A stretch of DNA of 28,812 bases from a virus (Duplodnaviria > Heunggongvirae > Uroviricota > Caudoviricetes): IMG/VR virus record IMGVR_UViG_2693429623_000012; one strand, given 5' to 3'. Of the stretch, positions 1,934-28,812 are shown piece after piece. A program made the translations under genes and the position numbers. The notes beneath the pieces were generated by a model that was not told the DNA's origin, did not search any database, and saw only the letters and a program-made list of their open reading frames with translations. Within the stretch, counting starts at the first letter, position 1. Every line of letters begins with the position of its first letter.

Positions 1934-2914
1934 CTAACGTCCTGCTTTTAACAATAACCAGATAAACACCGGCGCACCCAACGTTGCGGTGACCACGCCA
2001 ATAGGCAGCTCTGCGGCAGCTAATGCCAGGCGCGCTACAATATCGGCCAGCAGCACTGCGCTCGCCCCTGCCAGCGCGCAGCCGGGAAGTAATACGCGAT
2101 GATCGGTTAAACCACACAACCGAAGAATATGTGGGATCACCAGACCAATAAAGCCGATAGCACCCGCCAGCGCCACACTGACGCCAACCATCCAGCCGGT
2201 CGCTGCCACCAGCACATTGCGCCAGAACCACAGGGGTAAACCCAGTTGCCGCGCCGAGATCTCGCCAAGTGCTAACATATTCATCGGCCTGGACTGACAA
2301 CAGATCCACAACAACACGGGGATCAATGCCAGCATCAGCCAGCTTTGCCGCCAGTCTACGCCGCCAAAACCGCCCATCATCCAGTACATCAGCTGACGTA
2401 AATCAACAGAGGTGGAAAAGTAGATAGCCCACGTCATTAGTGCGCTACAGATAATCCCTAATGCAACGCCAGCCAGCAATAACCGACTGGTCGAAAGATG
2501 ACGACGGGCGAAACGTAAGAGTATTAAAGTGATGATAAGCGCGCCAGCAATCGCACACAGCCCTAGCGCCCAGTTGGGGAGTTGCCCTTGCCCAAGCAAT
2601 ACCGCGGCGATAAGCCCCACGCCTGCGCCGTTAGAGACGCCAAGTAGTCCAGGTTCTGCCAGAGGATTTTCAAACAACGCCTGCATTACAGCGCCGGATA
2701 TAGCCAGCGCCGCACCAACCAGCAATACAGCCAGCGTACGTGGCAGGCGAATTTGCCAGACGAACAGTTCGCCACGAGGAGTAAACCAGTCACCTGGCGA
2801 AATCCATTGTTCACCGGCGCAAAGGCTTAAGAGAAGCGCCAGCAGCATCAAAACTGACAGGCATAATAACCAGCGAATATTTTGTCGCTGTTGTTGGCGG
2901 GCAAGTGTCAGCAT
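1934..2914 (-). CDS. btuC: Vitamin B12 ABC transporter permease BtuC (326 aa)
   Basis: Highly hydrophobic multi-TM protein; sequence matches E. coli BtuC as recalled ([17 protein letters not shown]...LLKAGR). Confidence 0.95.
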
Positions 2915-2969
2915 GGTATCCGTTCTGCTGAAGTGTCATGGCGTTGATTTTACGGTGACTCTTCGACAG

Positions 2970-2997
2970 TGAAAAGAAAAAAGGCCGCAGAGCGGCC
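2970..2997 (-). terminator. Intrinsic terminator for a minus-strand transcript: hairpin GGCCGCTCTGCGGCC followed by TTTTTTCTTTTC
   Basis: Plus strand reads gaaaagaaaaaa-ggccgcagagcggcc (2970-2997); on the minus strand this is a 6-bp GC stem with 3-nt loop followed by a T-run. Lies about 110 bp downstream of the cargo ORF stop and about 60 bp upstream of the btuC start. Confidence 0.6.
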
Positions 2998-3106
2998 ATA
3001 AACACAAACAAAAATCAATAAGTTAGGTAATTATCAAAGACTTACAGACACACAAAAACACAGCCAACCACAACAAATAACAGAGATGTGGTCAATTTGT
3101 GGATCA

Positions 3107-3544
3107 TCAGCCAACAAATTTAGCAACAAATACAGCAACCGCCGCTGTGAAAATGGTTGTGCACACTGGCACAATAATGCCACTCCAACGCCACTTCGTA
3201 TTATCATCAACCTTGTCAAACCGCCGATTCATCTCATCCATAATCTTGTCAAAGCGTTTATCCATCGCTTCGGTAAGCTCACCCTTCAGGCTGTTAATGT
3301 CTGATTTGAGCTGCTCTTTCAGGTTAGCTGTATCAGATTTAAGCTCACCTTTCAGATTCGCAATATCGCATTCAAGATCACCTTTCAGATGTGCTATGTC
3401 TGCTTTGAGTTCACCTTTCACCTCACCAACATCGGCTTTAGTTGAGAGGTTTGTAGTGCGTTCAGCAAGCGTCGCAAGGTCGTTTCTTGTTAGCGATAAA
3501 TCACCTTCGAGCCGCTCAATTCGCCTTTCAAGTTTATCTGACAT
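3107..3544 (-). CDS. Membrane-anchored coiled-coil protein with five 11-residue (hendecad) repeats and one C-terminal TM helix; unknown function (alternative upstream start at 3661 gives 184 aa)
   Basis: ORF track 3107..3661. An internal ATG at 3544 is preceded by GGAGG (4-nt spacer) and gives MSDKLERRIERLEG... Repeats like ADIAHLKGDLE / CDIANLKGELK / SDTANLKEQLK; C-terminal hydrophobic segment IIVPVCTTIFTAAVAVFVAKFV. Lower GC than the flanking host genes. Confidence 0.6.
   Translation of the reverse strand: MSDKLERRIERLEGDLSLTRNDLATLAERTTNLSTKADVGEVKGELKADIAHLKGDLECDIANLKGELKSDTANLKEQLKSDINSLKGELTEAMDKRFDKIMDEMNRRFDKVDDNTKWRWSGIIVPVCTTIFTAAVAVFVAKFVG
3277..3441. repeat. Five imperfect tandem 33-bp repeats inside the coiled-coil cargo gene
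   Basis: Units start at 3277, 3310, 3343, 3376, 3409, for example gctcacctttcagattcgcaatatcgcattcaa and gatcacctttcagatgtgctatgtctgctttga; in frame, each encodes one 11-aa repeat. Confidence 0.85.
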
Positions 3545-3644
3545 TCCGCCTCCACTACTGCCGCCATCGCCACCATGATAAAGCACATCACGCTCAGAAT
3601 GCGACACACTACCTGCTGAATTACCGAAAAGATTTCTTGCTACA

Positions 3645-4178
3645 TTACCCATTATCACCATCCTGCGCTTTGTCTTTCTCCAACCACTTCAGCACCGCAG
3701 ACGTACGATAAAGGCTCAGGTAACCACAATTCAGGCAATGCAGCGTGTAATAAGTTTTGCGCATATCAGGTATGCTCTTAACATCACCCAAAAAAGCATA
3801 AGATACATAATGCTTTATGTTCTCTTTAATTAACTCACTCTGTTCCTCCAGGGGTAGATTGTTAAAATTTTCTGGTTTCTTATTTTTATCCCAGCAAAGA
3901 TCCATACTTTCTGGAACAGATAATCGCGACGATCCACATGAAGGGCAGACACTGGAGACCCCCTTCTCAGACAAGAAACGGAAGAAGATTTCTGGCGTAA
4001 TCTCCATCAGCCGCTCTTTATGTTTTNNNNNNNNNNNNNNNNNNNNNNNNNNNNNNNNNNNNNNNNNNNNNNNCGACTTCTTATTGATTTCATCAGCTTC
4101 TTCTTTGCATTTATCTTCTATATATTTCGATAGTAAATAGTCATATAACTCTTTTTTTGTAGGTTTTTTTATTTCCAT
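3645..4178 (-). CDS. Lys-rich protein with two CxxC pairs (CPSCG ... CLNCG), a putative zinc ribbon; unknown function; interrupted by an assembly gap so true length is uncertain
   Basis: ORF track 3645..4178 (16 X residues from the N run). Start ATG at 4178 lies 2 nt after the int stop (TAA at 4183-4181, minus strand) and is preceded by GGGAGGA inside the int 3' end. AT-rich (roughly 40% GC by eye). Confidence 0.55.
   Translation of the reverse strand: MEIKKPTKKELYDYLLSKYIEDKCKEEADEINKKSXXXXXXXXXXXXXXXXKHKERLMEITPEIFFRFLSEKGVSSVCPSCGSSRLSVPESMDLCWDKNKKPENFNNLPLEEQSELIKENIKHYVSYAFLGDVKSIPDMRKTYYTLHCLNCGYLSLYRTSAVLKWLEKDKAQDGDNG
4027..4073. other. Assembly gap (47 N)
   Basis: Run of n characters; not biological sequence. 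Confidence 0.99.
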
Positions 4179-4180
4179 AG

Positions 4181-5158
4181 TTACATTCCTCCCAAGGGAT
4201 TAAACCTCACCGCATCCTGCAAGTAATCCGGCGCAAGATGGGCATAAATCATCGTTGTCTGAATCTTTGCGTGCCCCAGAATTTTCTGGAGCGTCAGAAT
4301 ATTGCCGCCGTTCATCATGAAATGACTGGCGAAGGTGTGGCGCAGCGCATGAACAGCCTGGCCGTCAGGAACATCAGGTGCGACCGTTTTGATGACATCG
4401 CGAACCAATGAATAATCCAGCGTCGGAAACACCAGTTTCCCGCCCCGTTTTTTGATCTTTTCAAACAGGCTTTCAGAAATAGGAACGGTACGGTTTTTGC
4501 TGTTCTTCGTTTTTGAAAAAGTGATTCGACAATGAAGAACACGGCGCTGCTCCAGTGCCGCTACCTCGCCCCATCGCGCCCCGGTCGACAGAAGGATTTC
4601 GACGGCCAGCCGTTCATCGGGATTTTCAGCCAGTGCATCCAGCAACTGAACACATTCAGACTTACTCAGATATCCCATTTCACGCTCGTTAACCTTCATT
4701 CCTTTAAGGCCTTGAACGGGGTTATCGTTAAGAAAATGGCCGGATGAGATGAGTGCGGTAAACATCGCGCTTAACGCCCCAATCTCTCGATTTATGGTGC
4801 TGGGCTGTATCCCCTGCTCTATCCTGGACACACGTAGCTCGGTGAGCATCGTTGTATTAAGTTTATGCACGCACGGGTCATCCATTGCCTCACTCAAGCG
4901 CAGCAATTTAAGGCGCGTGTTATGCCCTGACTTCATTAGCTGGCCGTGGTATTTCCACCACAAGTCAATAAGCACTGACAGCGGACGGCGATCAATGGAG
5001 TTTCCTTTCCACTCATTGTTATGCTGTTGCGCCAGCACCCACCGCTCATATAAAACTGCATCCGATTTCGTTTTAAATTTTTTGCGAATGCGTTTGCCTT
5101 TACGCCCCTCAGGACGCATGTCAAGAAGATACCCTCCCGGAATTGATTTTATGCTCAT
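4181..5158 (-). CDS. int: Tyrosine site-specific integrase, P2 Int-like (about 325 aa)
   Basis: ORF track 4181..5308. Start moved to the ATG at 5158 (MSIKSIPGGYLLDMRPEGRKGKRIRKKF...), which aligns with the P2 Int N-terminus (MAIKKLDDGRYEVDIRPTGRNGKRIRRKF, recalled). C-terminal catalytic region HALRHTFASHFMMNGGNILTLQKILGHAKIQTTMIYAHLAPDYL carries the conserved R..H-x-x-R..Y motifs. Confidence 0.9.
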   Translation of the reverse strand: MSIKSIPGGYLLDMRPEGRKGKRIRKKFKTKSDAVLYERWVLAQQHNNEWKGNSIDRRPLSVLIDLWWKYHGQLMKSGHNTRLKLLRLSEAMDDPCVHKLNTTMLTELRVSRIEQGIQPSTINREIGALSAMFTALISSGHFLNDNPVQGLKGMKVNEREMGYLSKSECVQLLDALAENPDERLAVEILLSTGARWGEVAALEQRRVLHCRITFSKTKNSKNRTVPISESLFEKIKKRGGKLVFPTLDYSLVRDVIKTVAPDVPDGQAVHALRHTFASHFMMNGGNILTLQKILGHAKIQTTMIYAHLAPDYLQDAVRFNPLGGM

Positions 5159-5207: not shown

Positions 5208-5519
5208 TTAGCCGGGCTGTGTGCCAGTCTTGCGGGATTTTTGAGAAGACGATGTGTTTTCTGGCCCATCAGGGGAGAGAGAAGGACTGATCTGCCCAGC
5301 AGCCTCATTTGTTTCGTTACTCATCAACCACGTAGTGTATTTTTTAAATTCCGGGTGCATTGTGATTTTCAGTAAAACCTCCGTTCCCACACCTCGAATA
5401 CCAGTCTCGTATTGCTTAACCGTACCAACCGCAATACCTATTGAATCCGCGAACTTTGCCTGACTAAGCCCCTCAGATTCTCGAATTGCTTTTAGCTTCT
5501 TTGATATCTCTATTGACAT
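5208..5519 (-). CDS. Immunity repressor, P2 C-like (about 104 aa)
   Basis: ORF track 5208..5621; start moved to the ATG at 5519 (MSIEISKKLKAIRESEGLSQAKFADSIGIAVGTVKQYETG..., HTH). C-terminal part ...EFKKYTTWLMSNETNEAAGQISPSL... resembles P2 C (...QFTKYTLWFMTNQIAPESGQIAPAL..., recalled). Divergent from the cox-like gene, upstream of int. Confidence 0.8.
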   Translation of the reverse strand: MSIEISKKLKAIRESEGLSQAKFADSIGIAVGTVKQYETGIRGVGTEVLLKITMHPEFKKYTTWLMSNETNEAAGQISPSLSPDGPENTSSSQKSRKTGTQPG

Positions 5520-5614: not shown

Positions 5615-5893
5615 ATGGCAAAAGTCCTTAACACATACGAACAAGCGGATTTTGAGCGTTTGGCGGCGTTCTACCCATACCGTAATGAACATGGGCTACC
5701 GGTACTTGAAGAAAGCCTAGAGGATTATGCGAAACGCACAAATCAAAGCATTCTCGCTGTAAGAAGGCAGGCTGATAGATCGGTAATTCCCGTTACTCAA
5801 GAAGGAAGAAACACAAAACGCAAAGTAAATCTCTTCGCAATTTTCCTGAAAACCATCAGAAACGCAGAGAAATACGTGCAGATGACAAAATAA
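5615..5893 (+). CDS. Cox-like small early-operon protein (92 aa); assignment is positional
   Basis: First gene of the rightward early operon, divergent from C, about P2 Cox size (91 aa). I could not confirm sequence similarity to P2 Cox by eye. Confidence 0.5.
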   Translation: MAKVLNTYEQADFERLAAFYPYRNEHGLPVLEESLEDYAKRTNQSILAVRRQADRSVIPVTQEGRNTKRKVNLFAIFLKTIRNAEKYVQMTK

Positions 5894-7953: not shown

Positions 7954-10776
7954 ATGACGGCAGAGTACATCAGGGACTGGCAACAACCGCGCCACGCAGT
8001 GGGGCGTGAAGGAACGGGGATCCCCGCTCCTGAATCCGCGCTTTCCTCCTGGCTGGATGCCCACCGGGCAGAGAACGAGCGCCGCCAGGAAATGGCTGAT
8101 GCGGCGTTCTCCGCCACGCCACTGGGCAACCTGATTAATAAAAGCCTGGACGCACAGGAAAAACAGGACAAAACCATCACACTGGCAGGAGACGCCAGAA
8201 AACAGGCACGCGGCGCGGTGGATGAAGCCATGGCCTCGCTGCGCCTGCTGCCGTCCTATCTGCGCGATCCGCTTATTCGCCACCTCTCCTTCCTGCGCAA
8301 AAAACAGGAAGCCGATCGCCGGAAAGGCAAAAAGAGCTGGCAGGCGGAACGCTATGCACGCGGAACCCTGCGCAAAATATTCGAACGTCTGGATCGCACT
8401 GACGGACACTGGCTGACACCGGGTTATCGCTCCCTTGCCGGACGTGAACGCCTGGACGATTTGCTTTACCTGCCGCAACTCAACAAACACCAGATACAGA
8501 CGCTGGCCACCATGACGGCGGCGATGTTCAGCAGCACCTTCGAAAAACTCTGCGATGGTTTTGGCGCGACTGATGGCGAGCTGACCATGGATGTAACGCT
8601 GAAGGCGTATCAGATGCTGGCCCGCATGGCGTTACACTTACACGCCATGCCTCCGCATTATGACGCACTGACAACAGACAAAGACCGGAGGCACGAACCG
8701 GACACAGAACTGCTGCCGGGCGCAATCCTTCGCCTGACCTGTGCGGAATGGTGGAAACGCAAACTGTGGCTGTTACGTTGCGAGTGGAGAGAAGAACAAC
8801 TTCGCGCCGCCTGTCTGGTTTCCAGAAAAACATCGCCCTATCTGAGCCAGGACGCGTTAAGCGAGTTTCGCGCACAGCGCGAGAAAACACGCGATTTCCT
8901 GAAAAGTTTCATGCTGGAAAATGAAGACGGGTTCACGATTGATCTCGAGACGGTGTATTACGCGGGAGTAAGTAACCCGGTTCACCGTAAGGCAGAAATG
9001 ATGGCCACCATGAAGGGGCTGGAACTTCTGGCCGAAGCCCGTGGCGACAAAGCGGTGTTTCTGACTGTCACCTGCCCGTCAAAATACCACGCCACAACGG
9101 AGAACGGTCATCCGAATCCCAAATGGAACGGGGCCACAATGCGCGACTCCAGCGATTACCTGGTTAACACGTTTTTTGCGACGGTCCGCAAAAAACTGAA
9201 CCGCGACGGCCTGCGCTGGTATGGCATCCGCACGGCGGAGCCTCACCATGACGGCACCGTGCACTGGCATATGATGGTCTTTGCTCATCCGGAAGAAATC
9301 GACACCATTGTGTCCCACACCCGCGATATTGCCATTCAGGAAGATCGTCACGAGCTGGGCGATGACATAACTCCGCGCTTTAAGGCGGAGTATGTAGACG
9401 GCTCAAAAGGCACGCCAACCAGCTACATCGCCACCTACATCGGGAAAAACCTGGACAGCCGCGCCGTGGATGGCATCGACCCGAAAACGGGCAAGCCACG
9501 CGTTGACCACGAAACCGGAAAATCAATGGCCGAGAGCGTGGAACGCGCCATCGGCTGGGCGCGCCTTCACCGGGTCCGCCAGTTCCAGTTCTTTGGCATC
9601 CCCTCCCGCCAGGTATGGCGTGAACTGCGCCGCCTTGCCAGCCAGATGGCACGCAACCCGGAAGGCCCGCAACGGCTGAAGGATGACGCAATGGATGCGG
9701 TTCTTGCCGCCGCTGATGCCGGATGTTTTGCCACCTACATAGAGAAACAGGGCGGCGTACTTGTTCCACGCAAAGACTACCTGATTCGCACCGCCTACGA
9801 CCTCGCCGATGAGCTGAACGATTACGGCGAACAGAGCGTACAGATTTACGGGATCTGGTCACCACTCATCGGGGAATCCTCCCGTGTGTGCACGCATCCG
9901 GATAACTGGAAGCTGGTAAGACGCAAACCGGAAGCGGAAGACAGCGCCCGCGAAAATGGTTTTGACCTTCAGGGCGGCCCTGCCGCCCCTTGGACTCGTG
10001 GCAATAACTGTCCCCGTGTACAGGAAACGGACAACAACGGGACAGAACAGCCGGAAGAACGGCCAGCACCGTGGCCGCAGCTCCCTGACGGCGTTGATGT
10101 GGATGAATGGATGCGCTCACTGAAACGGCACGAACGCCGGGCGCTGATGCGTTCGCTTCGTGACAAACAGGCAAAAAACAGCAGTGATGAAATGCAGAGC
10201 TGGACACAGAGCCGCAAACAGCAGCGGCCTTTGCCTGATAACCACGAATTACTCGCTAAAGAATGGCGGGAGTCTGCTGAATCTCTCGGCCTGCATATCG
10301 GTGAACAACAGATGCAGCACCTGTTACGGGGCGGCAGTCTGTACGTTGACGGCAGCATCATTGCACCGCAGGGATTTGAAATTGTACGCAAACCGGATAC
10401 CCGCCCGGACAGCCGAATCACGCAGCTCTGGCAGCGCCTGAGCCGTAATCATGGCGTAAGCAGCACGGAGATCCGCCATAACCCGGTCGCCAGCTATCTG
10501 ACACAGCTGGGGGCATCAGACCCTGAAGCCGCCGCACGCCTGGCATCCACACTTCAGCAGGACCAGAACACCATGAAAACACCCGTTACCGTGCTTTCTG
10601 ACATGCTGCGCGCCATCCGCGACGCAGAGCACGCACAGAGAATCAGTGAAACCACTGAACGCGCCCGCCGCAAAGCAGACCTGCTGCGGGGTGGCCTGAC
10701 CAGTGGAAACAAAAAACAGACAGAAACGGGACTCACGAATCCCGTAAATGAGCAAAAAACGCGCAGCGATATATGA
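7954..10776 (+). CDS. A: Rolling-circle replication initiation endonuclease, P2 gpA family (940 aa, long C-terminal extension)
   Basis: HUH motif HWHMMVF encoded at 9262-9282 (residues 437-443) and paired catalytic tyrosines Y-x3-Y (SYIATYIGKN, 9421-9450, residues 491 and 495), as in P2 A; position after the early ORFs matches P2. Confidence 0.9.
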   Translation: MTAEYIRDWQQPRHAVGREGTGIPAPESALSSWLDAHRAENERRQEMADAAFSATPLGNLINKSLDAQEKQDKTITLAGDARKQARGAVDEAMASLRLLPSYLRDPLIRHLSFLRKKQEADRRKGKKSWQAERYARGTLRKIFERLDRTDGHWLTPGYRSLAGRERLDDLLYLPQLNKHQIQTLATMTAAMFSSTFEKLCDGFGATDGELTMDVTLKAYQMLARMALHLHAMPPHYDALTTDKDRRHEPDTELLPGAILRLTCAEWWKRKLWLLRCEWREEQLRAACLVSRKTSPYLSQDALSEFRAQREKTRDFLKSFMLENEDGFTIDLETVYYAGVSNPVHRKAEMMATMKGLELLAEARGDKAVFLTVTCPSKYHATTENGHPNPKWNGATMRDSSDYLVNTFFATVRKKLNRDGLRWYGIRTAEPHHDGTVHWHMMVFAHPEEIDTIVSHTRDIAIQEDRHELGDDITPRFKAEYVDGSKGTPTSYIATYIGKNLDSRAVDGIDPKTGKPRVDHETGKSMAESVERAIGWARLHRVRQFQFFGIPSRQVWRELRRLASQMARNPEGPQRLKDDAMDAVLAAADAGCFATYIEKQGGVLVPRKDYLIRTAYDLADELNDYGEQSVQIYGIWSPLIGESSRVCTHPDNWKLVRRKPEAEDSARENGFDLQGGPAAPWTRGNNCPRVQETDNNGTEQPEERPAPWPQLPDGVDVDEWMRSLKRHERRALMRSLRDKQAKNSSDEMQSWTQSRKQQRPLPDNHELLAKEWRESAESLGLHIGEQQMQHLLRGGSLYVDGSIIAPQGFEIVRKPDTRPDSRITQLWQRLSRNHGVSSTEIRHNPVASYLTQLGASDPEAAARLASTLQQDQNTMKTPVTVLSDMLRAIRDAEHAQRISETTERARRKADLLRGGLTSGNKKQTETGLTNPVNEQKTRSDI

Positions 10777-10852: not shown

Positions 10853-11812
10853 ATGAAAATTTGTATCGACGACGGCTCCACCAACATCAAGCTGGCATGG
10901 ACTGAGAACGGCGAACGCCGCAACGCCATCAGCCCGAACAGCTTCAAGTCGGAATGGTCTGCGCCGTTCGGTGGCATGCAGCCCGCGAACTACATGCTTG
11001 ATGGCGTGCGCTATGGTTTTGATCCGGTCAGCGATCGCTTTGTCCAGACAACCGACACGCAATACCAGTACAGCGATGTAAATGTCATTGCCATTCATCA
11101 CGCGCTGGTCAAATCAGGCATCACGCCACAGGAGGTGGATGTGGTTGTCACCCTGCCACTGAGCGAGTATTTCGACACAAACGCACAGCCGGACATGGCC
11201 AACATCAACCGCAAAAAAGCGAACGTTATGCGCCCGGTGGAGTACCAGAACGGCGAAGCATTCACTATCCGTAACGTGCGGGTTATGCCTGAATCCATTC
11301 CGGCTGGCTTTAAGGCACTGGCTGACATGAGTCCGTTTGAATCCCTGCTGATTGTGGATTTGGGCGGAACCACGCTGGATGTGGCAAAGGTTCAGGGGCA
11401 ACTGGCAGGTATCAGCCAGGTGTTTTGCGATCCACACGTAGGCGTTTCTCTGATGGCCGATGCCGTACTGTCGGTGATGGCCACTAACGGTATGCGCACC
11501 AGTCACCACATCGCCAATACCATTATCGAACATCGCCATGATGAAGCCTGGCTGCGCCAGCACATCCACAATGACGCGCATTACGCCAGCCTGATGGCGG
11601 TTATTCGTGAAAAGGAAGAAACACTGAAACAACGCGTGATCCGCGCGCTGGCGGGTTTTTCGGGTTACGGGCGGGTGATGGTTGTCGGTGGAGGGGCGGA
11701 GATTGTGGCACCCGCTATCCGCGAAGCCTGCGGAGTTAATGCGACTTTCATCGCGGACGGGGTGCCACAGTTTGCTCTGGTTAATGGGCTGTACGCAATG
11801 GACAAGGAGTAA
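10853..11812 (+). CDS. Actin-like segregation ATPase, ParM/StbA family (319 aa)
   Basis: N-terminus MKICIDDGSTNIKLAW...ISPNSFKSEW...YSDVNVIAIHHAL closely parallels plasmid R1 ParM (MLVFIDDGSTNIKLQW...ISPNSFKREW...YSDVNVVAVHHAL, recalled); AAGGAAAAG upstream. Confidence 0.85.
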   Translation: MKICIDDGSTNIKLAWTENGERRNAISPNSFKSEWSAPFGGMQPANYMLDGVRYGFDPVSDRFVQTTDTQYQYSDVNVIAIHHALVKSGITPQEVDVVVTLPLSEYFDTNAQPDMANINRKKANVMRPVEYQNGEAFTIRNVRVMPESIPAGFKALADMSPFESLLIVDLGGTTLDVAKVQGQLAGISQVFCDPHVGVSLMADAVLSVMATNGMRTSHHIANTIIEHRHDEAWLRQHIHNDAHYASLMAVIREKEETLKQRVIRALAGFSGYGRVMVVGGGAEIVAPAIREACGVNATFIADGVPQFALVNGLYAMDKE

Positions 11813-11816
11813 ACCA

Positions 11817-12128
11817 ATGACGACACCAACCAGACGGATAAGTTTCTATCTGAAGCCTGCGGCCGTCAAGAACGAAAGCGAAGCATGCGCCTGGCTGGGC
11901 AGCCTTACACCAGAAGCCCGCAAAAGCGGCCAACGCGTGGCTTTTCTGGCCGGGCTGGCACTTCTGAAAATGAATCCAGCAGAGGCTTACCGACTGGCTG
12001 CATGGGCTGACGATGAGGCGTTATCGGTGACACAAACCAGGACAGAACGCCCCGTGCCACAGCCAGTACCAACCGCACAGATAACCAGTCAGATAGCAGG
12101 GAATATCCGGGCATTATTTCCTGAATGA
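11817..12128 (+). CDS. Putative ParR-like partition adaptor (103 aa)
   Basis: In-frame ATG 5 nt after the parM-like stop. Weak but collinear resemblance to R1 ParR: RRISFYLKP vs RRTIAFKLNP, AGLAL core, C-terminal IRALFPE vs ILRSLFPKE (recalled). Confidence 0.55.
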   Translation: MTTPTRRISFYLKPAAVKNESEACAWLGSLTPEARKSGQRVAFLAGLALLKMNPAEAYRLAAWADDEALSVTQTRTERPVPQPVPTAQITSQIAGNIRALFPE

Positions 12129-12188
12129 CGAATTTGACGGCTTTTAATTTTATCGGGGTGCACTGTCGCCCCGCACGAGGAAAACACG

Positions 12189-12713
12189 ATGAAAAAATAC
12201 GAATACATGCTAATGAAAGAAGCACTGCGGGCTGGTCTGGCTCCCTGTCCTGTATCCGTAGAAGCTGTTGTTGGGAACACGATTTTCCGAACGCTGCGAA
12301 ATCGCGTATCCGTGAAGATGGTTCACCAACCACCCAAATCTACCAGCATGATCTATCTGCCGCTGCCCGAGGCTATCAAACTTATGCGTTCGCTGAAATT
12401 TGCGATTTGGATGCAGACACAAATCAACAAAGCGGTGCAAAACACCTTCGTTAAGAGACTAATACCGGAGCTTGCTGCCAGATGTGCAAAATGTACCAGA
12501 CCCGCACTTCAATTTGATCTGTCATTGATTCAACAAGCTACGGAGGCAGAACTGTACCGCCTGTCACCTATCCGTGATGCTCACACGGAAGCATCAGAAA
12601 TGTTCCGGCTCATGTTTCAATTTAATTTTGCCGTTCGACGCACACGCGTTCAGGTCAATCGCATGATGCAGGAGCAGGAAGAGTTAACACAGTACAAAGG
12701 GGGCAGCCAGTGA
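12189..12713 (+). CDS. Hypothetical protein (174 aa), accessory-locus cargo
   Basis: ORF track 12189..12713; GAGGA upstream; no recognisable motif. Confidence 0.5.
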   Translation: MKKYEYMLMKEALRAGLAPCPVSVEAVVGNTIFRTLRNRVSVKMVHQPPKSTSMIYLPLPEAIKLMRSLKFAIWMQTQINKAVQNTFVKRLIPELAARCAKCTRPALQFDLSLIQQATEAELYRLSPIRDAHTEASEMFRLMFQFNFAVRRTRVQVNRMMQEQEELTQYKGGSQ

Positions 12714-12949
12714 GTAATTCAGCACGACTACAGCTTGGTTTTTCACCGCTATCAAAAACCATCGTATTGGCAAAAATGCGTGACTTAGGAGACGGAACAA
12801 AACGCCGCGTAGGAAATGATCGCGGTCGCGATGTAACCAACGAGGCCGCTCAACTCGTTTGGCATCTAGTCATGGCAGAAGGCGGTGAAATTAATTGGGA
12901 GCTGGATGATGGTTCTCGTATGATTTTGAGGGCCGAGAAGAGTAAATAG
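12710..12949 (+). CDS. Hypothetical protein (79 aa), accessory-locus cargo
   Basis: ORF track 12710..12949; start overlaps the upstream stop (ATGA). Confidence 0.45.
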   Translation: MSNSARLQLGFSPLSKTIVLAKMRDLGDGTKRRVGNDRGRDVTNEAAQLVWHLVMAEGGEINWELDDGSRMILRAEKSK

Positions 12950-12963
12950 CTCAAGGGGGATTA

Positions 12964-13149
12964 ATGCTAAATGATGATGAAGAAGAGCTGCTTATGCAGG
13001 AATGGTCGCTCGGTGATTATGATAATGGTGAAAATGGGTGCCCGCATTGTGGCCGTTATCGTTTATGTATCTGCCAGAATGGAAAACACAGATGTGAAAA
13101 GTGCAATTGGTCTCCGGAACTTAATGACTACGTGCCGATCGAGTGGTAG
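12964..13149 (+). CDS. Small Cys-rich putative zinc-binding protein (61 aa)
   Basis: ORF track 12964..13149; CPHCGRYRLCICQNGKHRCEKCNW has at least two CxxC pairs. Confidence 0.45.
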   Translation: MLNDDEEELLMQEWSLGDYDNGENGCPHCGRYRLCICQNGKHRCEKCNWSPELNDYVPIEW

Positions 13150-13189
13150 AGGTAAGTCACACTAGGTGTTTTTTAGTTGATTTTATAAA

Positions 13190-19947: not shown

Positions 19948-20144
19948 TGAAAGTGAAGACACTGGAAGGCGACACCGTGGATTCGCTCTGTTTCCGGTAC
20001 TACGGCACGACGCAGGGCGTCACCGAAAAGGTGCTGGATGCCAACCCCGGACTCTGCCGACAGGTATTTCTGGAAGCCGGACAGGAGGTGGAAATGCCGG
20101 AGCCGGAGAAGAAAAAACAACGAGAGATGATACAGCTATGGTAA
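19947..20144 (+). CDS. X: Small tail protein, P2 gpX-like (65 aa)
   Basis: ATG at 19947 overlapping the L stop; MKVKTLEGDTVDSLCFRYYGTTQGVTEKVLDANPGL... resembles P2 X (MKTFALQGDTLDAICVRYYGRTEGVVETVLAANPGL, recalled). Confidence 0.8.
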   Translation: MKVKTLEGDTVDSLCFRYYGTTQGVTEKVLDANPGLCRQVFLEAGQEVEMPEPEKKKQREMIQLW

Positions 20145-20440
20145 CAGGTTTTTTTCAGCGGGTGAGTGACTGGATCACCTTCTGGGCATCAGTCACAGCC
20201 ACCACAATAGGCGTGATGACCATCAGTGAAAAAATCGCCCTTGCCGGGTTGTTACTCGGTTCTCTGTCTGCATTACATGCCTGGCGACATCGCCGCCTGA
20301 TGGAAACCGCCATGCAGCGTCGCAATGAACTCATCGCCAGTATCCTGGCGCAGTCAGACGCACGGCCACTTCACGACAGTGAGCGTCAGGCTCTGAACAT
20401 TCTGCGGGATAACGATACACATGATAAAGCTGCCCGTTAA
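20138..20440 (+). CDS. Holin, two predicted TM helices (100 aa)
   Basis: In-frame ATG at 20138 within ORF track 19931..20440; hydrophobic segments ITFWASVTATTIGVMTI and IALAGLLLGSLSALHAW; charged C-terminus; sits immediately before the endolysin. Confidence 0.7.
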   Translation: MVTGFFQRVSDWITFWASVTATTIGVMTISEKIALAGLLLGSLSALHAWRHRRLMETAMQRRNELIASILAQSDARPLHDSERQALNILRDNDTHDKAAR

Positions 20441-20969
20441 ACGTTACGCCGTAGCCGCCATTGTGGCGCTGGGGTTCTCCATTGCCCCTCACAAACTCCG
20501 GACCAGCCCGGAAGCGCAAATCCGCATTGCCACATGGGAGGACTGTCGCGCAACGCCTTACCGGGATATTGCCGGGGTAATGACCGTGGGGTGCGGCTCG
20601 ACCGGGCATGTGGAAAATCGTCTGTACACCGAAACGGAAGTCGCCGGGCGCTGGGTTAATGATATGCAACATGCAGAAAACTGCATAAATCAGAACTTCA
20701 GCGGCAACGCCATGCCACAGTCCGCGTTTGAGGCAATGACAGATGCCGCCTTTAATCTTGGATGCAGAAATCTTATGTGGTTCAGGGATAAGAACCGTAA
20801 CTACCACCGCACCACTATCTGGAAACATGCACAGGCGCACAACTGGCCTGACATGTGCAACAGACTGACTGACTTCGTGAACAGCGGCGGCGAACGCTCA
20901 CAGGGACTGGTTAACCGTCGTACTGATTTTCGTGCATGGTGCTTACGTGACACCGGAGGCCAGTCATGA
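20421..20969 (+). CDS. Endolysin, T4-lysozyme-like muramidase with N-terminal signal-anchor-release (SAR) segment (182 aa)
   Basis: Hydrophobic N-terminal segment YAVAAIVALGFSIAP followed by the catalytic triad spacing E-x8-D-x5-T (WEDCRATPYRDIAGVMT), as in phage P21-type SAR endolysins (established family feature). Confidence 0.8.
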   Translation: MIKLPVKRYAVAAIVALGFSIAPHKLRTSPEAQIRIATWEDCRATPYRDIAGVMTVGCGSTGHVENRLYTETEVAGRWVNDMQHAENCINQNFSGNAMPQSAFEAMTDAAFNLGCRNLMWFRDKNRNYHRTTIWKHAQAHNWPDMCNRLTDFVNSGGERSQGLVNRRTDFRAWCLRDTGGQS

Positions 20970-21439
20970 AAGTGCGTTACATCCTGATGATGGCACTGAC
21001 CGTCCTCACGCTGCTGACCATAACACTCTGGCAGACATTCAGACTGGGGCAGGAAGACGGACACAACCGTTATACACAGGCGCAACTGGACGATTACAGC
21101 CGGACCCTGAAAGAGGCCGGCACCATCATCAGCACCGCATCCGGTGTACTGCGTGACGTCATGACAGCGCGCCAGAACCGACAACAGGAAGGGGAAATCC
21201 GACGTGAACAGCTACGCAACGATATCACGACAGATGCATGTGCCCGCGCTGTTCCTGACGCTCGCTTTACTGAGCGGTTGCACCAGCACGCAGAACGCGT
21301 CCGCGCCGCCGCCGTCGTTCCGTTTCATCCCGGAAGGGCTGACCGCCCCCGTACTTCCCCCGCCGTTTCCGGTGACGCCATCATGGGGAAACATCGGGAT
21401 ATGGAGCGACAGCCTCATGGACGCACTGGAAACCTGTAA
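20966..21439 (+). CDS. Inner-membrane spanin component (Rz/LysB-like, 157 aa)
   Basis: N-terminal TM helix (ILMMALTVLTLLTITLW) then a charged coiled-coil region; follows the endolysin; start overlaps the endolysin stop. Confidence 0.65.
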   Translation: MKVRYILMMALTVLTLLTITLWQTFRLGQEDGHNRYTQAQLDDYSRTLKEAGTIISTASGVLRDVMTARQNRQQEGEIRREQLRNDITTDACARAVPDARFTERLHQHAERVRAAAVVPFHPGRADRPRTSPAVSGDAIMGKHRDMERQPHGRTGNL

Positions 21440-24956: not shown

Positions 24957-25825
24957 ATGAGTACCACAACACGAAAATTTAAAACCATTATCACCGATAC
25001 GGGTGCAAAAAAATTAGCGCAGGCAACCGCGCCAGATGGGAAACCTGTCCGCCTGACACATATGGCCGTGGGTGACGGCGGCGGTACTTTACCCACGCCA
25101 GACAGTAAGCAGACCCGTCTTGTGCATGAGGTGTGGCGACATACCGTTAATCGCGTCACCCTGGACGCAACACATCAGAACCACATTATTGCGGAGCTGG
25201 TTATTCCTCCTGAAACGGGCGGATTCTGGATCCGGGAAATTGGTGTGTTTGATGAGCACGGCGATTTGATCGCGGTAGGCAATACTGCCGAAAGTTACAA
25301 GCCAACCGTTGCCGAAGGATCCGGACGTGCACAAACATTTCGCACCATTCTGACCGTATCCAGCACTGCCACTGTGGCGCTTACCGTGGATAACACCATG
25401 GTGATGGCCACAGTGAATTACGTGGATGACAAACTGAAAGAGCATGAACAGTCACGACGTCACCCGGACGCCTCGCTGACCGCAAAAGGCCTTGTCCAGC
25501 TCAGCAACGCCACCAACAGCACGTCTGAAACGCTGGCAGCGACACCAAAAGCCGTTAAGGCAGTAATGGATGAAACGAACAAGAAAGCCCCATTAAACAG
25601 CCCGGCACTGACCGGAACGCCAACAACACCAACTGCGCGACAGGGAACGAATAATACCCAAATCGCAAGCACGGCTTTCGTTATGGCTGCGATTGCCGCA
25701 CTTGTAGACTCTTCGCCTGATGCACTGAACACACTGAACGAGCTGGCGGCGGCGCTGGGCAACGACCCGAATTTTGCGACCACCATGACTAACGCGCTTG
25801 CGGGTAAGCAACCGAAAGATGCCAC
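24957..25825 (+). CDS. H: Tail fibre protein, P2 gpH-like, 3' end truncated by assembly gap
   Basis: ORF track 24957..25907 runs through the N run; only 24957..25825 is real sequence. Follows I as in P2. The C-proximal part shares a near-identical segment with the downstream stf gene. Confidence 0.85.
25493..25825. repeat. Copy 1 of a ~330-bp near-identical direct repeat (tail-fibre module shared by H and stf)
   Basis: 25493-25825 aligns with 27740-28072; exact identity over at least 90 bp (25606-25698 vs 27852-27949), scattered mismatches elsewhere. Copy 1 ends exactly at the N gap. Confidence 0.9.
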
Positions 25826-25852
25826 NNNNNNNNNNNNNNNNNNNNNNNNNNN
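25826..25852. other. Assembly gap (27 N) joining P2-like and lambdoid material
   Basis: Run of n characters placed at the end of the shared repeat; sequence on the two sides belongs to different phage modules. Confidence 0.99.
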
Positions 25853-26209
25853 TACAGCGATACCCGCTGGCATGAAGATTCCGTGCGTAACCGCTGGTTC
25901 AGCGTGATGGCGGGGCCGTCTGTACGCGTGAATGAATGGTTCAGCGCGTATGCGATGGTGGGTGTGGCTTACAGCCGTGTGTCGACTTTCTCCGGGGATT
26001 ATCTCCGCGTAACTGACAACAAGGGGAAAACGCACGATGTGCTGACCGGAAGTGATGACGGTCGCCACAGCAACACGTCTCTGGCGTGGGGGGCTGGCGT
26101 GCAGTTTAACCCGACCGAATCCGTGACCATTGACCTTGCTTATGAAGGTTCCGGTAGTGGTGACTGGCGAACGGATGCATTTATTGTTGGTATCGGATAC
26201 CGTATCTGA
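25853..26209 (+). CDS. lom: Ail/Lom-family outer-membrane beta-barrel protein, 3' fragment (5' end missing at the gap)
   Basis: Reading frame open from the gap edge: YSDTRWHEDSVRNRWFSVMAGPSVRVNEWFSAYAM...SLAWGAGVQFNPTESVTIDLAYEGSGSGDWRTDAFIVGIGYRI, matching the lambda Lom C-terminal half as recalled. Confidence 0.85.
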   Translation, partial: YSDTRWHEDSVRNRWFSVMAGPSVRVNEWFSAYAMVGVAYSRVSTFSGDYLRVTDNKGKTHDVLTGSDDGRHSNTSLAWGAGVQFNPTESVTIDLAYEGSGSGDWRTDAFIVGIGYRI

Positions 26210-26314
26210 CAACAGACGCCGATTTATCTTCTGTAAATATTGTTATGATACGCAGGTTCATCCACCTTATGGGGTGAACTGCGTTTGAGGAAACGTAAAG
26301 TTACACTGTCCTGA

Positions 26315-26348
26315 AGCCCGTGGCGTCACTGCTGCGGGCTTTTTTTAT
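26315..26348 (+). terminator. Possible intrinsic terminator downstream of lom
   Basis: AGCCCG-(14-nt loop)-CGGGCT followed by TTTTTTTATT (26340-26348). The loop is long, so confidence is limited. Confidence 0.4.
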
Positions 26349-26360
26349 TGGTGGAAAAGT

Positions 26361-28812
26361 ATGACAGTAAAAATTTCTGGCGTGCTTAAAGATGGCACAG
26401 GAAAACCAGTACAGAACTGCACCATTGTGCTGAAGGCCAGACGAACCAGCAGCACGATGGTGGTGAACACGGTGGCCTCTGAAAATCCGGATGAAGCCGG
26501 ACGTTACAGCATGGATGTTGAGCATGGTCAGTACAGCGTCACCCTGCTGGTTGAAGGTTTTCCGCCTTCACATGCCGGGACCATTACCGTCTATGAAGGT
26601 TCCAGACCAGGTACGCTGAATGATTTTCTCGGTGCCATGACGGAGGATGATGTCCGACCGGAGGCACTGCGCCGCTTTGAGCAGATGGTGGAAGAGGTGT
26701 CACGTAACGCCTCCGCGGTTGCACAGAATACGGCAGCCGCGAAAAAATCAGCCAGCGAGGCGGCAACTCATGCAACCGATGCTGCAGCCTCAGCACGTGC
26801 CGCCAGCACGTCAGCCGGACAGGCCGCGTCGTCGGCTCAGTCAGCGTCTTCCAGCGCAGGAACGGCATCGACAAAGGCCCGTGAAGCAGCAAAAAGTGCT
26901 GCTGCAGAGTCATCAAAAAGCGCGGCAGCTACCAGCGCCAGTGCCGCGAAAACGTCAGAAACGAATGCCGCAGCATCACAAAAATCGGCAGCCACTTCTG
27001 CATCCACAGCGACCACGAAGGCGTCAGAAGCTGCCACCTCGGCACGGGGTGCGGCGGCCTCAAAAGAGGCAGCGAAATCTTCAGAAACGAATGCATCATC
27101 AAGTGCCAGTAGTGCAGCTTCCTCGGCAACGGCGGCAGGAAATTCCGCGAAGGCGGCAAAAACGTCCGAGACGAACGCTAAGTCTTCTGAAACAGCAGCG
27201 GGACAGAGCGCCTCAGCTGCGGCAGGTTCAAAAACAGCGGCTGCATTATCTGCCAGTGCCGCGTCAACAAGTGCCGGGCAGGCCTCAGCCAGTGCCACCG
27301 CCGCCGGAAAATCGGCAGAAAGCGCCGCATCATCCGCTTCAACAGCCACAACGAAGGCTGGCAAAGCCACTGAGCAAGCCACTGCAGCAGCGAGGTCTGC
27401 TTCTGCAGCAAAAACCTCTGAAACAAATGCAAAGACTTCAGCAGACAATGCTGCTTCCTCTAAGGCAGCAGCCGCATCGTCAGCCAGTTCAGCGGCGTCA
27501 TCGGCATCATCTGCGTCTGCTTCAAAAGATGAGGCGACCAGACAAGCGTCAGCAGCGAAAGGTAGTGCCACGACAGCAACAACGAAAGCATCAGAGGCGG
27601 CAGGCAGTGCGACGGCTGCATCTCAGAGCAAAGTTGCTGCTGAATCCGCGGCAACGCGCGCCGAGACAGCAGCAAAACGGGCAGAGGATATTGCATCCGC
27701 CGTGGCGCTTGAGGATGCGAGCACGACGAAAAAGGGGATAGTACAGCTCAGCAGTGCGACCAACAGCACTTCCGAGTCACTGGCGGCAACGCCAAAAGCG
27801 GTTAAGGCGGTAATGGGTGAAACGAACAAGAAAGCGCCCTTAAATAGTCCTGCACTGACCGGAACGCCAACAACACCAACTGCGCGACAGGGAACGAATA
27901 ATACCCAAATCGCAAGCACGGCTTTCGTTATGGCTGCGATTGCCGCCCTTGTAGATTCGTCACCTGATGCACTGAACACGCTGAACGAGCTGGCTGCGGC
28001 GCTGGGCAACGACCCGAATTTTGCGACCACCATGACTAACGCGCTTGCGGGTAAGCAACCGAAAGATGCCACTCTGACGGCGCTGGCGGGGCTTGCTACT
28101 GCGGCAGACAGGTTTCCGTATTTTACGGGGAATGATGTCGCCAGCCTGGCAACCCTGACAAAAGTCGGGCGGGATATTCTTGCGAAATCGACCGTTGCTG
28201 CCGTTATCGAATACCTCGGTTTACAGGAAACGGTAAACAAGGCTGGTAACGCCGTTCAGCGTTCCGGCGATAAAATGACCGGAGAACTGAAAATTGGCAC
28301 GGTGAATGCGCTGCGAATTTTCAATGATACCTTCGGTCTAATTTTCCGTCGTTCAGAAGATTTTCTTCATTTCATTCCGACGGCTGAAGGACAAGGCGAA
28401 AACGGTAATATCGGCCCATTAAGGCCATTCGCTATAAATCTGAGAACAGGTGCTATATCTGTCAGCCACGGGGCCAAAATTAAAGGAGGTCTAGCTATTG
28501 GAGCTACTGATAACGCACTGGGTGAAAACTCCATTGTTCTGGGAGATAACGACACCGGATTTAGGCAAGATGGAGATGGTATTATTAGCTTCTATTCAAA
28601 TGGTTCGCGCATCGGACATATTGATGAGTTAGGATTACATCTTTATAAAGATATTGAATCTAATGGCAGCAATTTTAGATTAAAAAGTAATTACCGCCAC
28701 CACATTACATTCGCCAACGAAGACGGAAGAATTCGTATGTTTTTGTGGAAAGATAACGGTGGTGATGGTGTTCATATTAATAACGGTTCAGATGGTGGTG
28801 GTGATTTCATTT
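26361..28812 (+). CDS. stf: Side tail fibre protein, lambda Stf-like (partial, continues past window end)
   Basis: My own translation from the ATG at 26361 is open to the end of the window (not in the ORF track because there is no stop): MTVKISGVLKDGTGKPVQNCTIVLKARR...SMDVEHGQYSV..., then a long Ala/Ser/Thr-rich repeat region, then ...KKGIVQLSSATNSTSESLAATPKAVKAV...ALAGKQPKDATLTALAGL..., matching lambda Stf as recalled. Confidence 0.9.
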   Translation, partial: MTVKISGVLKDGTGKPVQNCTIVLKARRTSSTMVVNTVASENPDEAGRYSMDVEHGQYSVTLLVEGFPPSHAGTITVYEGSRPGTLNDFLGAMTEDDVRPEALRRFEQMVEEVSRNASAVAQNTAAAKKSASEAATHATDAAASARAASTSAGQAASSAQSASSSAGTASTKAREAAKSAAAESSKSAAATSASAAKTSETNAAASQKSAATSASTATTKASEAATSARGAAASKEAAKSSETNASSSASSAASSATAAGNSAKAAKTSETNAKSSETAAGQSASAAAGSKTAAALSASAASTSAGQASASATAAGKSAESAASSASTATTKAGKATEQATAAARSASAAKTSETNAKTSADNAASSKAAAASSASSAASSASSASASKDEATRQASAAKGSATTATTKASEAAGSATAASQSKVAAESAATRAETAAKRAEDIASAVALEDASTTKKGIVQLSSATNSTSESLAATPKAVKAVMGETNKKAPLNSPALTGTPTTPTARQGTNNTQIASTAFVMAAIAALVDSSPDALNTLNELAAALGNDPNFATTMTNALAGKQPKDATLTALAGLATAADRFPYFTGNDVASLATLTKVGRDILAKSTVAAVIEYLGLQETVNKAGNAVQRSGDKMTGELKIGTVNALRIFNDTFGLIFRRSEDFLHFIPTAEGQGENGNIGPLRPFAINLRTGAISVSHGAKIKGGLAIGATDNALGENSIVLGDNDTGFRQDGDGIISFYSNGSRIGHIDELGLHLYKDIESNGSNFRLKSNYRHHITFANEDGRIRMFLWKDNGGDGVHINNGSDGGGDFI
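27740..28072. repeat. Copy 2 of the ~330-bp direct repeat shared with gene H
   Basis: See copy 1; here the repeat continues into ...actctgacggcgctggcggggctt..., the sequence expected to follow where copy 1 is cut by the gap. Confidence 0.9.

Follow-up and report, generated by a model that had tools for sequence, protein, structure and literature searches.

Gene content of the window and the host side of the junction

The stretch of DNA analyzed here, 28,812 nucleotides long and referred to below as the window, opens with four host genes that all lie on the minus strand. The open reading frame list and the RefSeq annotation of the corresponding locus in E. coli O26 RM8426 identify them as nlpC (29-493), btuD (571-1320), btuE (1320-1871), and btuC (1934-2914). 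The last of these encodes the permease of the vitamin B12 ABC transporter and belongs to a locus that is 99.5% identical in RM8426; btuE, btuD, and nlpC are found downstream of it. The btuC leader (2915-2972, minus strand) is host DNA as well and is the same as that of the empty site in the prophage-free strain DH1. A promoter-like site, TTTTCA-17-TAAAAT at 2975-2947, was found in the leader as a consensus match only. From the 25-bp core described below through the btuC ATG, the window and the DH1 empty site are identical, which rules out a change of the immediate upstream region of btuC by the insertion.

To the right of btuC, a short noncoding stretch is followed by two AT-rich open reading frames, an integrase gene (int, 4181-5158), and a gene for a helix-turn-helix (HTH) repressor, and from the repressor to the window end at 28812 the genes continue with P2-like replication, head, lysis, and tail functions. 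The GC content drops to 0.32-0.40 across 3600-4350. A preliminary description of the window had reported AT-rich prophage cargo and then int close upstream of btuC, and this arrangement was borne out. It had also stated that in E. coli K-12 ihfA lies immediately upstream of btuC on the same strand; in DH1, ihfA is located 100 bp upstream of btuC in that orientation and is followed by pheT. As the preliminary description had stated, the window contains no IhfA-like open reading frame in any frame (tblastn, best E = 4.7), and neither ihfA DNA nor the ihfA side of the attachment site attB was matched anywhere in it.

A 25-bp core at the host/phage boundary

A megablast search with positions 2600-3400 of the window gave matches in all 5426 complete E. 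coli genomes, and in nearly all of them the match ended at query base 398, which corresponds to window position 2997. As mapped by these alignments, the host/phage boundary is 2997|2998. The core was defined by a three-way alignment of the DH1 attB, the window attL, and the attR of RM8426, whose junction is 99.9% identical to that of the window across 801 bp. In this alignment attB equals attL up to ...GCGGCC and diverges beyond it, and attB equals attR from AAAGAAAAAAGG... onward. The resulting common core, AAAGAAAAAAGGCCGCAGAGCGGCC, is 25 bp long, and the alignment, a terminator scan, and a fold prediction all bear on its assignment. Its attL copy occupies 2973-2997, lies 58 bp upstream of btuC, and is the only copy in the window; the core is identical in DH1 attB, in the window attL, and in RM8426 attR, the last being taken from a relative and not from the window's own genome. 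An attL core had been expected in or near 2915-3106, and alignment to a prophage-free ihfA-btuC region had been suggested as the way to the exact breakpoint; the core was found within that interval and the breakpoint at its last base, 2997.

The core consists of an A/T-tract (2973-2982) followed by a stem-loop, GGCCGC-AGA-GCGGCC, at 2983-2997. A terminator scan returned this element as a minus-strand terminator, GGCCGCTCTGCGGCC, with the tail TTTTTTCTTT, and the window hairpin folds with -12.6 kcal/mol (z = -2.9). The hairpin of the empty site forms a perfect palindrome with an 11-bp stem, AAAAAGGCCGC-AGA-GCGGCCTTTTT, has U-tracts in both directions, and folds with about -17 kcal/mol on either strand; it is predicted to terminate transcription from both directions between ihfA and btuC. 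The hairpin that the preliminary description had placed at 2970-2997 is real, but the hairpin proper covers 2983-2997 and the wider span adds the A-tract. Whether it was of phage or host origin had been left undecided. By the attB/attL/attR alignment it is both, being the common core of all three sites.

The attP arm and the integrase

Positions 2998-3106 (109 bp) form the int-proximal attP arm, which is kept across prophages that carry different cargo. Across 51 aligned attL arms, taken from IMG/VR contigs as well as complete genomes, the sequence is near-invariant from the core to TTTGTGGATC (3105/3106), after which unrelated sequences follow. Two predicted integration host factor (IHF) sites, AATCAATAAGTTA at 3013-3025 and TATCAAAGACTTA at 3032-3044, are perfect consensus matches on the plus strand; in the whole 28.8-kb window there are two perfect WATCAANNNNTTR matches, both inside the arm, with 0.73 expected by chance. 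Close to the distal end of the arm are two predicted P2-type Int arm repeats, TGTGGTCA (3087-3094) and TGTGGATC (3098-3105), arranged as direct repeats on the plus strand with their starts 11 bp apart and invariant in the 51 arms. Both repeats agree with tgTGGaCa, the published arm-site consensus for P2-type Int (PMC3448106). The attR arm of RM8426 (L002) has the repeats TGTGGACA (38368-38375) and AGTGGAAC (38379-38386), also 11 bp apart, and an IHF consensus, AATCAATCAGTTA, that adjoins the core (38408-38420; a consensus match only). The predicted P2-type arm repeats are therefore present as a direct pair on each flank of the core. These consensus matches suggest that Int and IHF would bind at the arm sites.

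The int gene (4181-5158, minus strand) encodes a P2-family tyrosine integrase of 325 amino acids, as assigned by Pfam (Int_N, 2.1e-28; Phage_integrase, 5.7e-20), by alignment to the Wphi-type Int, and by tblastn against phages. It is 49% identical to the Wphi-type Int over the full length, with the catalytic residues R, K, HxxR, H, and Y conserved and the motifs LSTGxRW, TKNxKxRTVP, HxLRHTFAS, LGHA, and YAHL retained; the two reference loci, labelled P2 and Wphi, do not differ in their Int sequence. Residues Y10, D13, and R15, associated with P2-type arm recognition, are conserved in the window Int, and such Y/D/R residues have been proposed to separate P2-type from 186-type arm recognition (PMC3448106).

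The Wphi-type attP follows the same plan: the int stop is followed by a pair of TGTCCACA repeats, some 90 bp in which an IHF consensus lies, the core with its hairpin, further repeats, and then ogr. The Wphi/P2 module and the one described here share a heterobivalent tyrosine integrase, tgTGGaCa direct pairs 11 bp apart in both arms, an IHF consensus beside the hairpin core, and an int gene transcribed towards att with ogr on the opposite side. However, the core sequence and attB differ, and the only architectural difference is the gap between int and the repeats, which is a variable cargo slot of 0.4-1.1 kb here and about 15 bp in the Wphi-type phage. The protein in the position of cox is also unrelated in sequence to that of Wphi: the 92-amino-acid open reading frame assigned by position (5615-5893, plus strand) had no similarity to Wphi Cox and matched no Pfam or NCBIfam family. 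The HTH repressor gene (5208-5519, minus strand; Pfam HTH_3 and annotation) occupies the position of P2 gene C.

Identity of the prophage and location of ihfA

With a probability of roughly 93%, we read 2973-3106 as the attL of an approximately 35-kb prophage of the P2 family (Peduoviridae) that is inserted in the terminator hairpin between ihfA and btuC. The finding is an ordinary one, and the integration site is already known: for E. coli SE11, Oshima et al. (2008, PMC2608844, Table 2) listed PP_SE11-4, which is P2-like, measures 35.8 kb, lies "between btuC and ihfA", and is accompanied by a 25-nt duplication. Likened by its published description, PP_SE11-4 agrees with the present element in its site, its P2-like type, the 25-nt duplication, and its size (35.8 kb against 35.1 kb in RM8426), whereas its cargo and mosaic segments may differ from those of the window, as they do among the occupied genomes.

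The preliminary description had proposed that a matching attR direct repeat be sought beyond the window. Such a second copy of the core was found in RM8426, 35,098 bp from the first, with an intact ihfA-pheT-pheS beyond attR. Between btuC and this intact ihfA, the RefSeq annotation of RM8426 shows a full P2-like gene set, which includes portal, large terminase, GPO scaffold, P2-family major capsid, gpM, tail, baseplate, and ogr genes; the position of ogr is beyond the window end. The claim that the expected ihfA neighbor was missing thus holds for the window, but in RM8426 the gene was not lost and is displaced 35.1 kb, beyond attR. Judging from these relatives, the window's own attR and ihfA would be located about 9 kb past the window end, in the expected order AAAGAAAAAAGGCCGCAGAGCGGCC, then TTTTTAGTTAG, and then ihfA.

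The window and RM8426 are 94-99.5% identical over most of 30-25560, with 99.4-99.5% in the leading 12 kb and 94-97% thereafter, apart from some unmatched segments. The segments lacking a megablast match to the RM8426 prophage, 12127-13187, 20136-21200, and 25561-28812, represent mosaic replacement. The first of them sits between the partition genes and the portal gene, a position at which P2-like phages carry variable old/tin-type cargo. The annotated replication endonuclease (7954-10776, plus strand) has 940 amino acids and is longer than P2 gpA. It is followed by a full ParM actin-like segregation protein (10853-11812, plus strand; Pfam StbA_N, 2.7e-82, and ParM C-terminal model, 1.3e-68). 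A partitioning/stability gene adjoins the ParM open reading frame, and such a plasmid-style module is unusual in an integrating P2-like phage.

Occupancy of the site in genomes and databases

An uninterrupted attB was found in 5118 of the 5426 complete E. coli genomes. The phage arm (2998-3106) was present in 296 of the 5426, in one copy each, always on the chromosome and with 93-100% identity, and the integrase in 299, some copies of which were truncated. The carriers include O26:H11 11368, O103:H2 12009, O111 strains, O104:H4 C227-11, O55:H7 CB9615, and O157:H7 FRIK944. The arm adjoins btuC in all five annotated complete genomes that were inspected and in 43 of the 44 junction-bearing IMG/VR contigs. 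According to the preliminary description, the genes at 3107-4178 are phage cargo, a reading that would fall if prophage-free genomes held them at this position. The 5118 empty sites run from the hairpin into ihfA without 2998-4178, and this absence, together with the location of the arm beside btuC, supports the phage origin of these genes. The boundary 2997|2998 and the core are now fixed for a prophage that about 5% of complete E. coli genomes carry.

At least 13 complete genomes have an interrupted attB in which megablast did not detect the 2998-3106 arm; the ihfA-btuC attB of these genomes may be occupied by arms of greater divergence or by other elements.

No isolated phage with this int/att module was found at the DNA level in 50,697 phage records, the best protein match being 56.5%. 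The attP form of the junction reads ...CAGTTATTG + core + ATAAACAC..., and a 40-nt exact pattern of the excised attP gave 0 matches in IMG/VR. A 25-nt pattern gave 44 matches there, comprising 43 attL sites and one attL' nested in a lambdoid prophage, with no attP.

Complete host btuC is carried by 10 of the 44 IMG/VR junction contigs (L011, L015, L016, L023, L025, L027, L028, L030, L031, and L046), some of which extend to btuE, btuD, and nlpC. In a 2026 survey (PMC13100340), BtuC is listed among the auxiliary metabolic genes that P2-like viruses carry. We infer, from the junction and not from a comparison with the survey data, that this listing may be a boundary artifact of the btuC-side junction. 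The boundary is of practical use, since viral-contig databases often include host btuC together with the prophage.

Independent integrations and the region of strand exchange

Among species-representative genomes, two records with btuC genes 78-79% identical to that of E. coli have, at the same btuC-side site, an Int that is 98-99% identical to that of the window; all remaining Int relatives were at most 51% identical. One of the two records is from Salmonella enterica and has TAA as the loop of the core. The other (L057, NZ_JBQPOM010000071.1) is labelled "Vagococcus sp. WN89Y" and contains an enterobacterial btuC (78%) and a P2-like prophage; given its Gram-positive label, it is most likely a contamination or a mislabelled assembly.

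An entire prophage of the btuC-site type was also found nested in a lambdoid prophage, both in an IMG/VR contig (L013, position 4562) and in the complete genome of ETEC1738 (L055, approximately 4860-40930). In these, it lies between the lambdoid lysis and terminase genes. The uninterrupted lambdoid UTAK-5 carries catGAAAAAGGCCGCAGAGCGGCCtttatgg at this place, a sequence that resembles the core but is one A shorter; the look-alike core of the lambdoid target, GAAAAAGGCCGCAGAGCGGCC, is at 20660-20682 of L052. In ETEC1738, attL' retains the target-type left edge catGAAAAAGG and attR' retains the phage-type GAAAGAAAAAAGG, and these left edges place the strand exchange within 2978-2997, the right-hand 20 nt of the core. 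The lambdoid look-alike segment is apparently present in more than 100 genomes that do not have the P2-like arm.

Alternative readings of the junction

One alternative would shift the junction rightward to about 4180, next to int, and assign 2998-4178 to host DNA specific to the strain; in its favor, the cargo slot is strain-variable and AT-rich in the manner of many host islets. However, host homology stops at 2997 across the genomes, and the empty sites join the hairpin to ihfA. The arm, moreover, is about as frequent as int (296 and 299 genomes), accompanies the phage both at its location inside a lambdoid prophage and in records from outside E. coli, and bears the Int arm repeats that a P2-type attP needs. 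The end of host homology, the arm counts, the attB/attL/attR alignment, and the 5118 empty sites rule out a junction at about 4180, and we give it practically no weight. That the strain has lost ihfA, through a rearrangement or an imprecise excision for instance, would explain why the window holds no ihfA sequence, and is scarcely more credible: RM8426, which has the closest junction, retains an intact ihfA just past attR, the ihfA side of attB is matched in every one of the 5426 genomes, and the window ends inside the prophage, about 9 kb short of the expected attR.

A less remote alternative, although still an improbable one, is that the element is a decayed, immobile remnant and the junction a historical scar. 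Truncated int genes do occur at the btuC site in some genomes, such as those of many O111:H8 strains, and neither a free phage nor an attP form was found in the records searched (50,697 phage records and IMG/VR, respectively). On the other hand, int and the core are intact in the window and the P2-like gene set is contiguous, and the independent integrations at a secondary site and in other genera, as judged from the sequence records, argue for recent mobility of this type.

The RNA target and a proposed mechanism of integration

The Rfam family STnc540 (RF02082; gathering score 38 bits) scored 67.4 bits at the empty attB (L001 1816-1974, minus strand) and 43 bits, above the gathering score, at the attR of RM8426 (L002 38368-38524, minus strand). 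At the window attL (2915-3038, minus strand) it scored 22.1 bits, below the gathering score, and Rfam at the gathering threshold gave no match in the window. These scores indicate that the sRNA locus stays with ihfA at attR and that the window has a copy of the terminator only. In Salmonella, STnc540 is a ProQ-dependent sRNA that is processed from the ihfA 3′ UTR (PMC6315103). Because STnc540 derives from this 3′ UTR, the att core would be the terminator common to the ihfA mRNA and STnc540.

Some prophages integrate at the 3′ ends of genes for small stable RNAs, such as 186 in tRNA-Ile and Fels-2/SopEPhi in ssrA (PMC3448106). As in those phages, the target here is a terminator-proximal RNA 3′ end and the phage-borne core restores the target. 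In contrast to them, it is the terminator of an sRNA derived from an mRNA 3′ UTR, not a tRNA or tmRNA, and the core is short, at 25 bp.

We propose that the integrase would recombine the phage attP with the 25-bp host attB, which would be the intrinsic terminator of the pheST-ihfA transcript, hairpin and T-tract together, as well as the 3′ end of STnc540. Since the core is duplicated at both prophage ends, both junctions would keep the terminator. At attL, the hairpin with TTTTTTCTTT on the minus strand would separate the int/cargo transcription unit from the btuC leader, which is unchanged; behind ihfA, attR would retain the complete bidirectional hairpin, with integration regenerating the hairpin and ten bases of the U-tract there. 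The stretch 2998-3106 would serve as the int-proximal attP arm with its putative IHF and Int sites, and the cargo slot (3107-4178) would be placed between this arm and int. The terminator function of the core is itself a prediction from the scan and the fold, and no functional effect of the insertion on ihfA, STnc540, or btuC is predicted. It is a curiosity that a phage with IHF consensus sites in its attP lands right behind an IHF gene; we found no evidence of regulatory coupling.

A variable cargo slot between the arm and int

The two AT-rich open reading frames of the window fill the slot between the arm repeats and int. Cargo gene 1 (3107-3661, minus strand) encodes a protein that combines a coiled coil of 11-residue repeats with a membrane anchor at the C terminus (subthreshold likeness to DUF1640/CCDC90; phrog_9415); the RefSeq start of this gene at 3544 gives 145 amino acids. 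Cargo gene 2 (3645-4178, minus strand), as judged by the translation of the RM8426 copy, encodes a small protein with two CxxC pairs that is zinc-ribbon-like (phrog_4293). At least five cassette forms of 417-1141 bp were found in the slot (window 3107-4178; L003 4524-5323; L004 2607-3002; L057). Three of these at least five forms, that of the window included, are diverged versions of the pair of zinc-ribbon-like (phrog_4293) and tail-anchored coiled-coil (phrog_9415) proteins. Of the other cassettes, one encodes a single 131-amino-acid protein and one an unrelated pair of 222 and 123 amino acids.

Searches of the cargo proteins against Pfam, PADLOC, PHROGs, and NCBIfam returned only subthreshold coiled-coil noise and PHROGs without known function. 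We tentatively consider, as a rather doubtful possibility, that 3107-4178 is an undescribed hypervariable cargo hotspot of this P2-like lineage and that its two genes could make up a new module for superinfection exclusion or for defense against phages, whose expression from the prophage would end at the att-core hairpin.

A 33-bp tandem repeat of 3.2 copies (3316-3420) encodes the 11-residue coiled-coil repeats of cargo gene 1, and the repeat copy number makes its open reading frame 184 or 195 amino acids long, depending on the strain. In cargo gene 2, a masked run of 47 N is present at 4027-4073, where RM8426 has 14 bases, and the window's copy of this gene may be 33 bp longer than that of RM8426.
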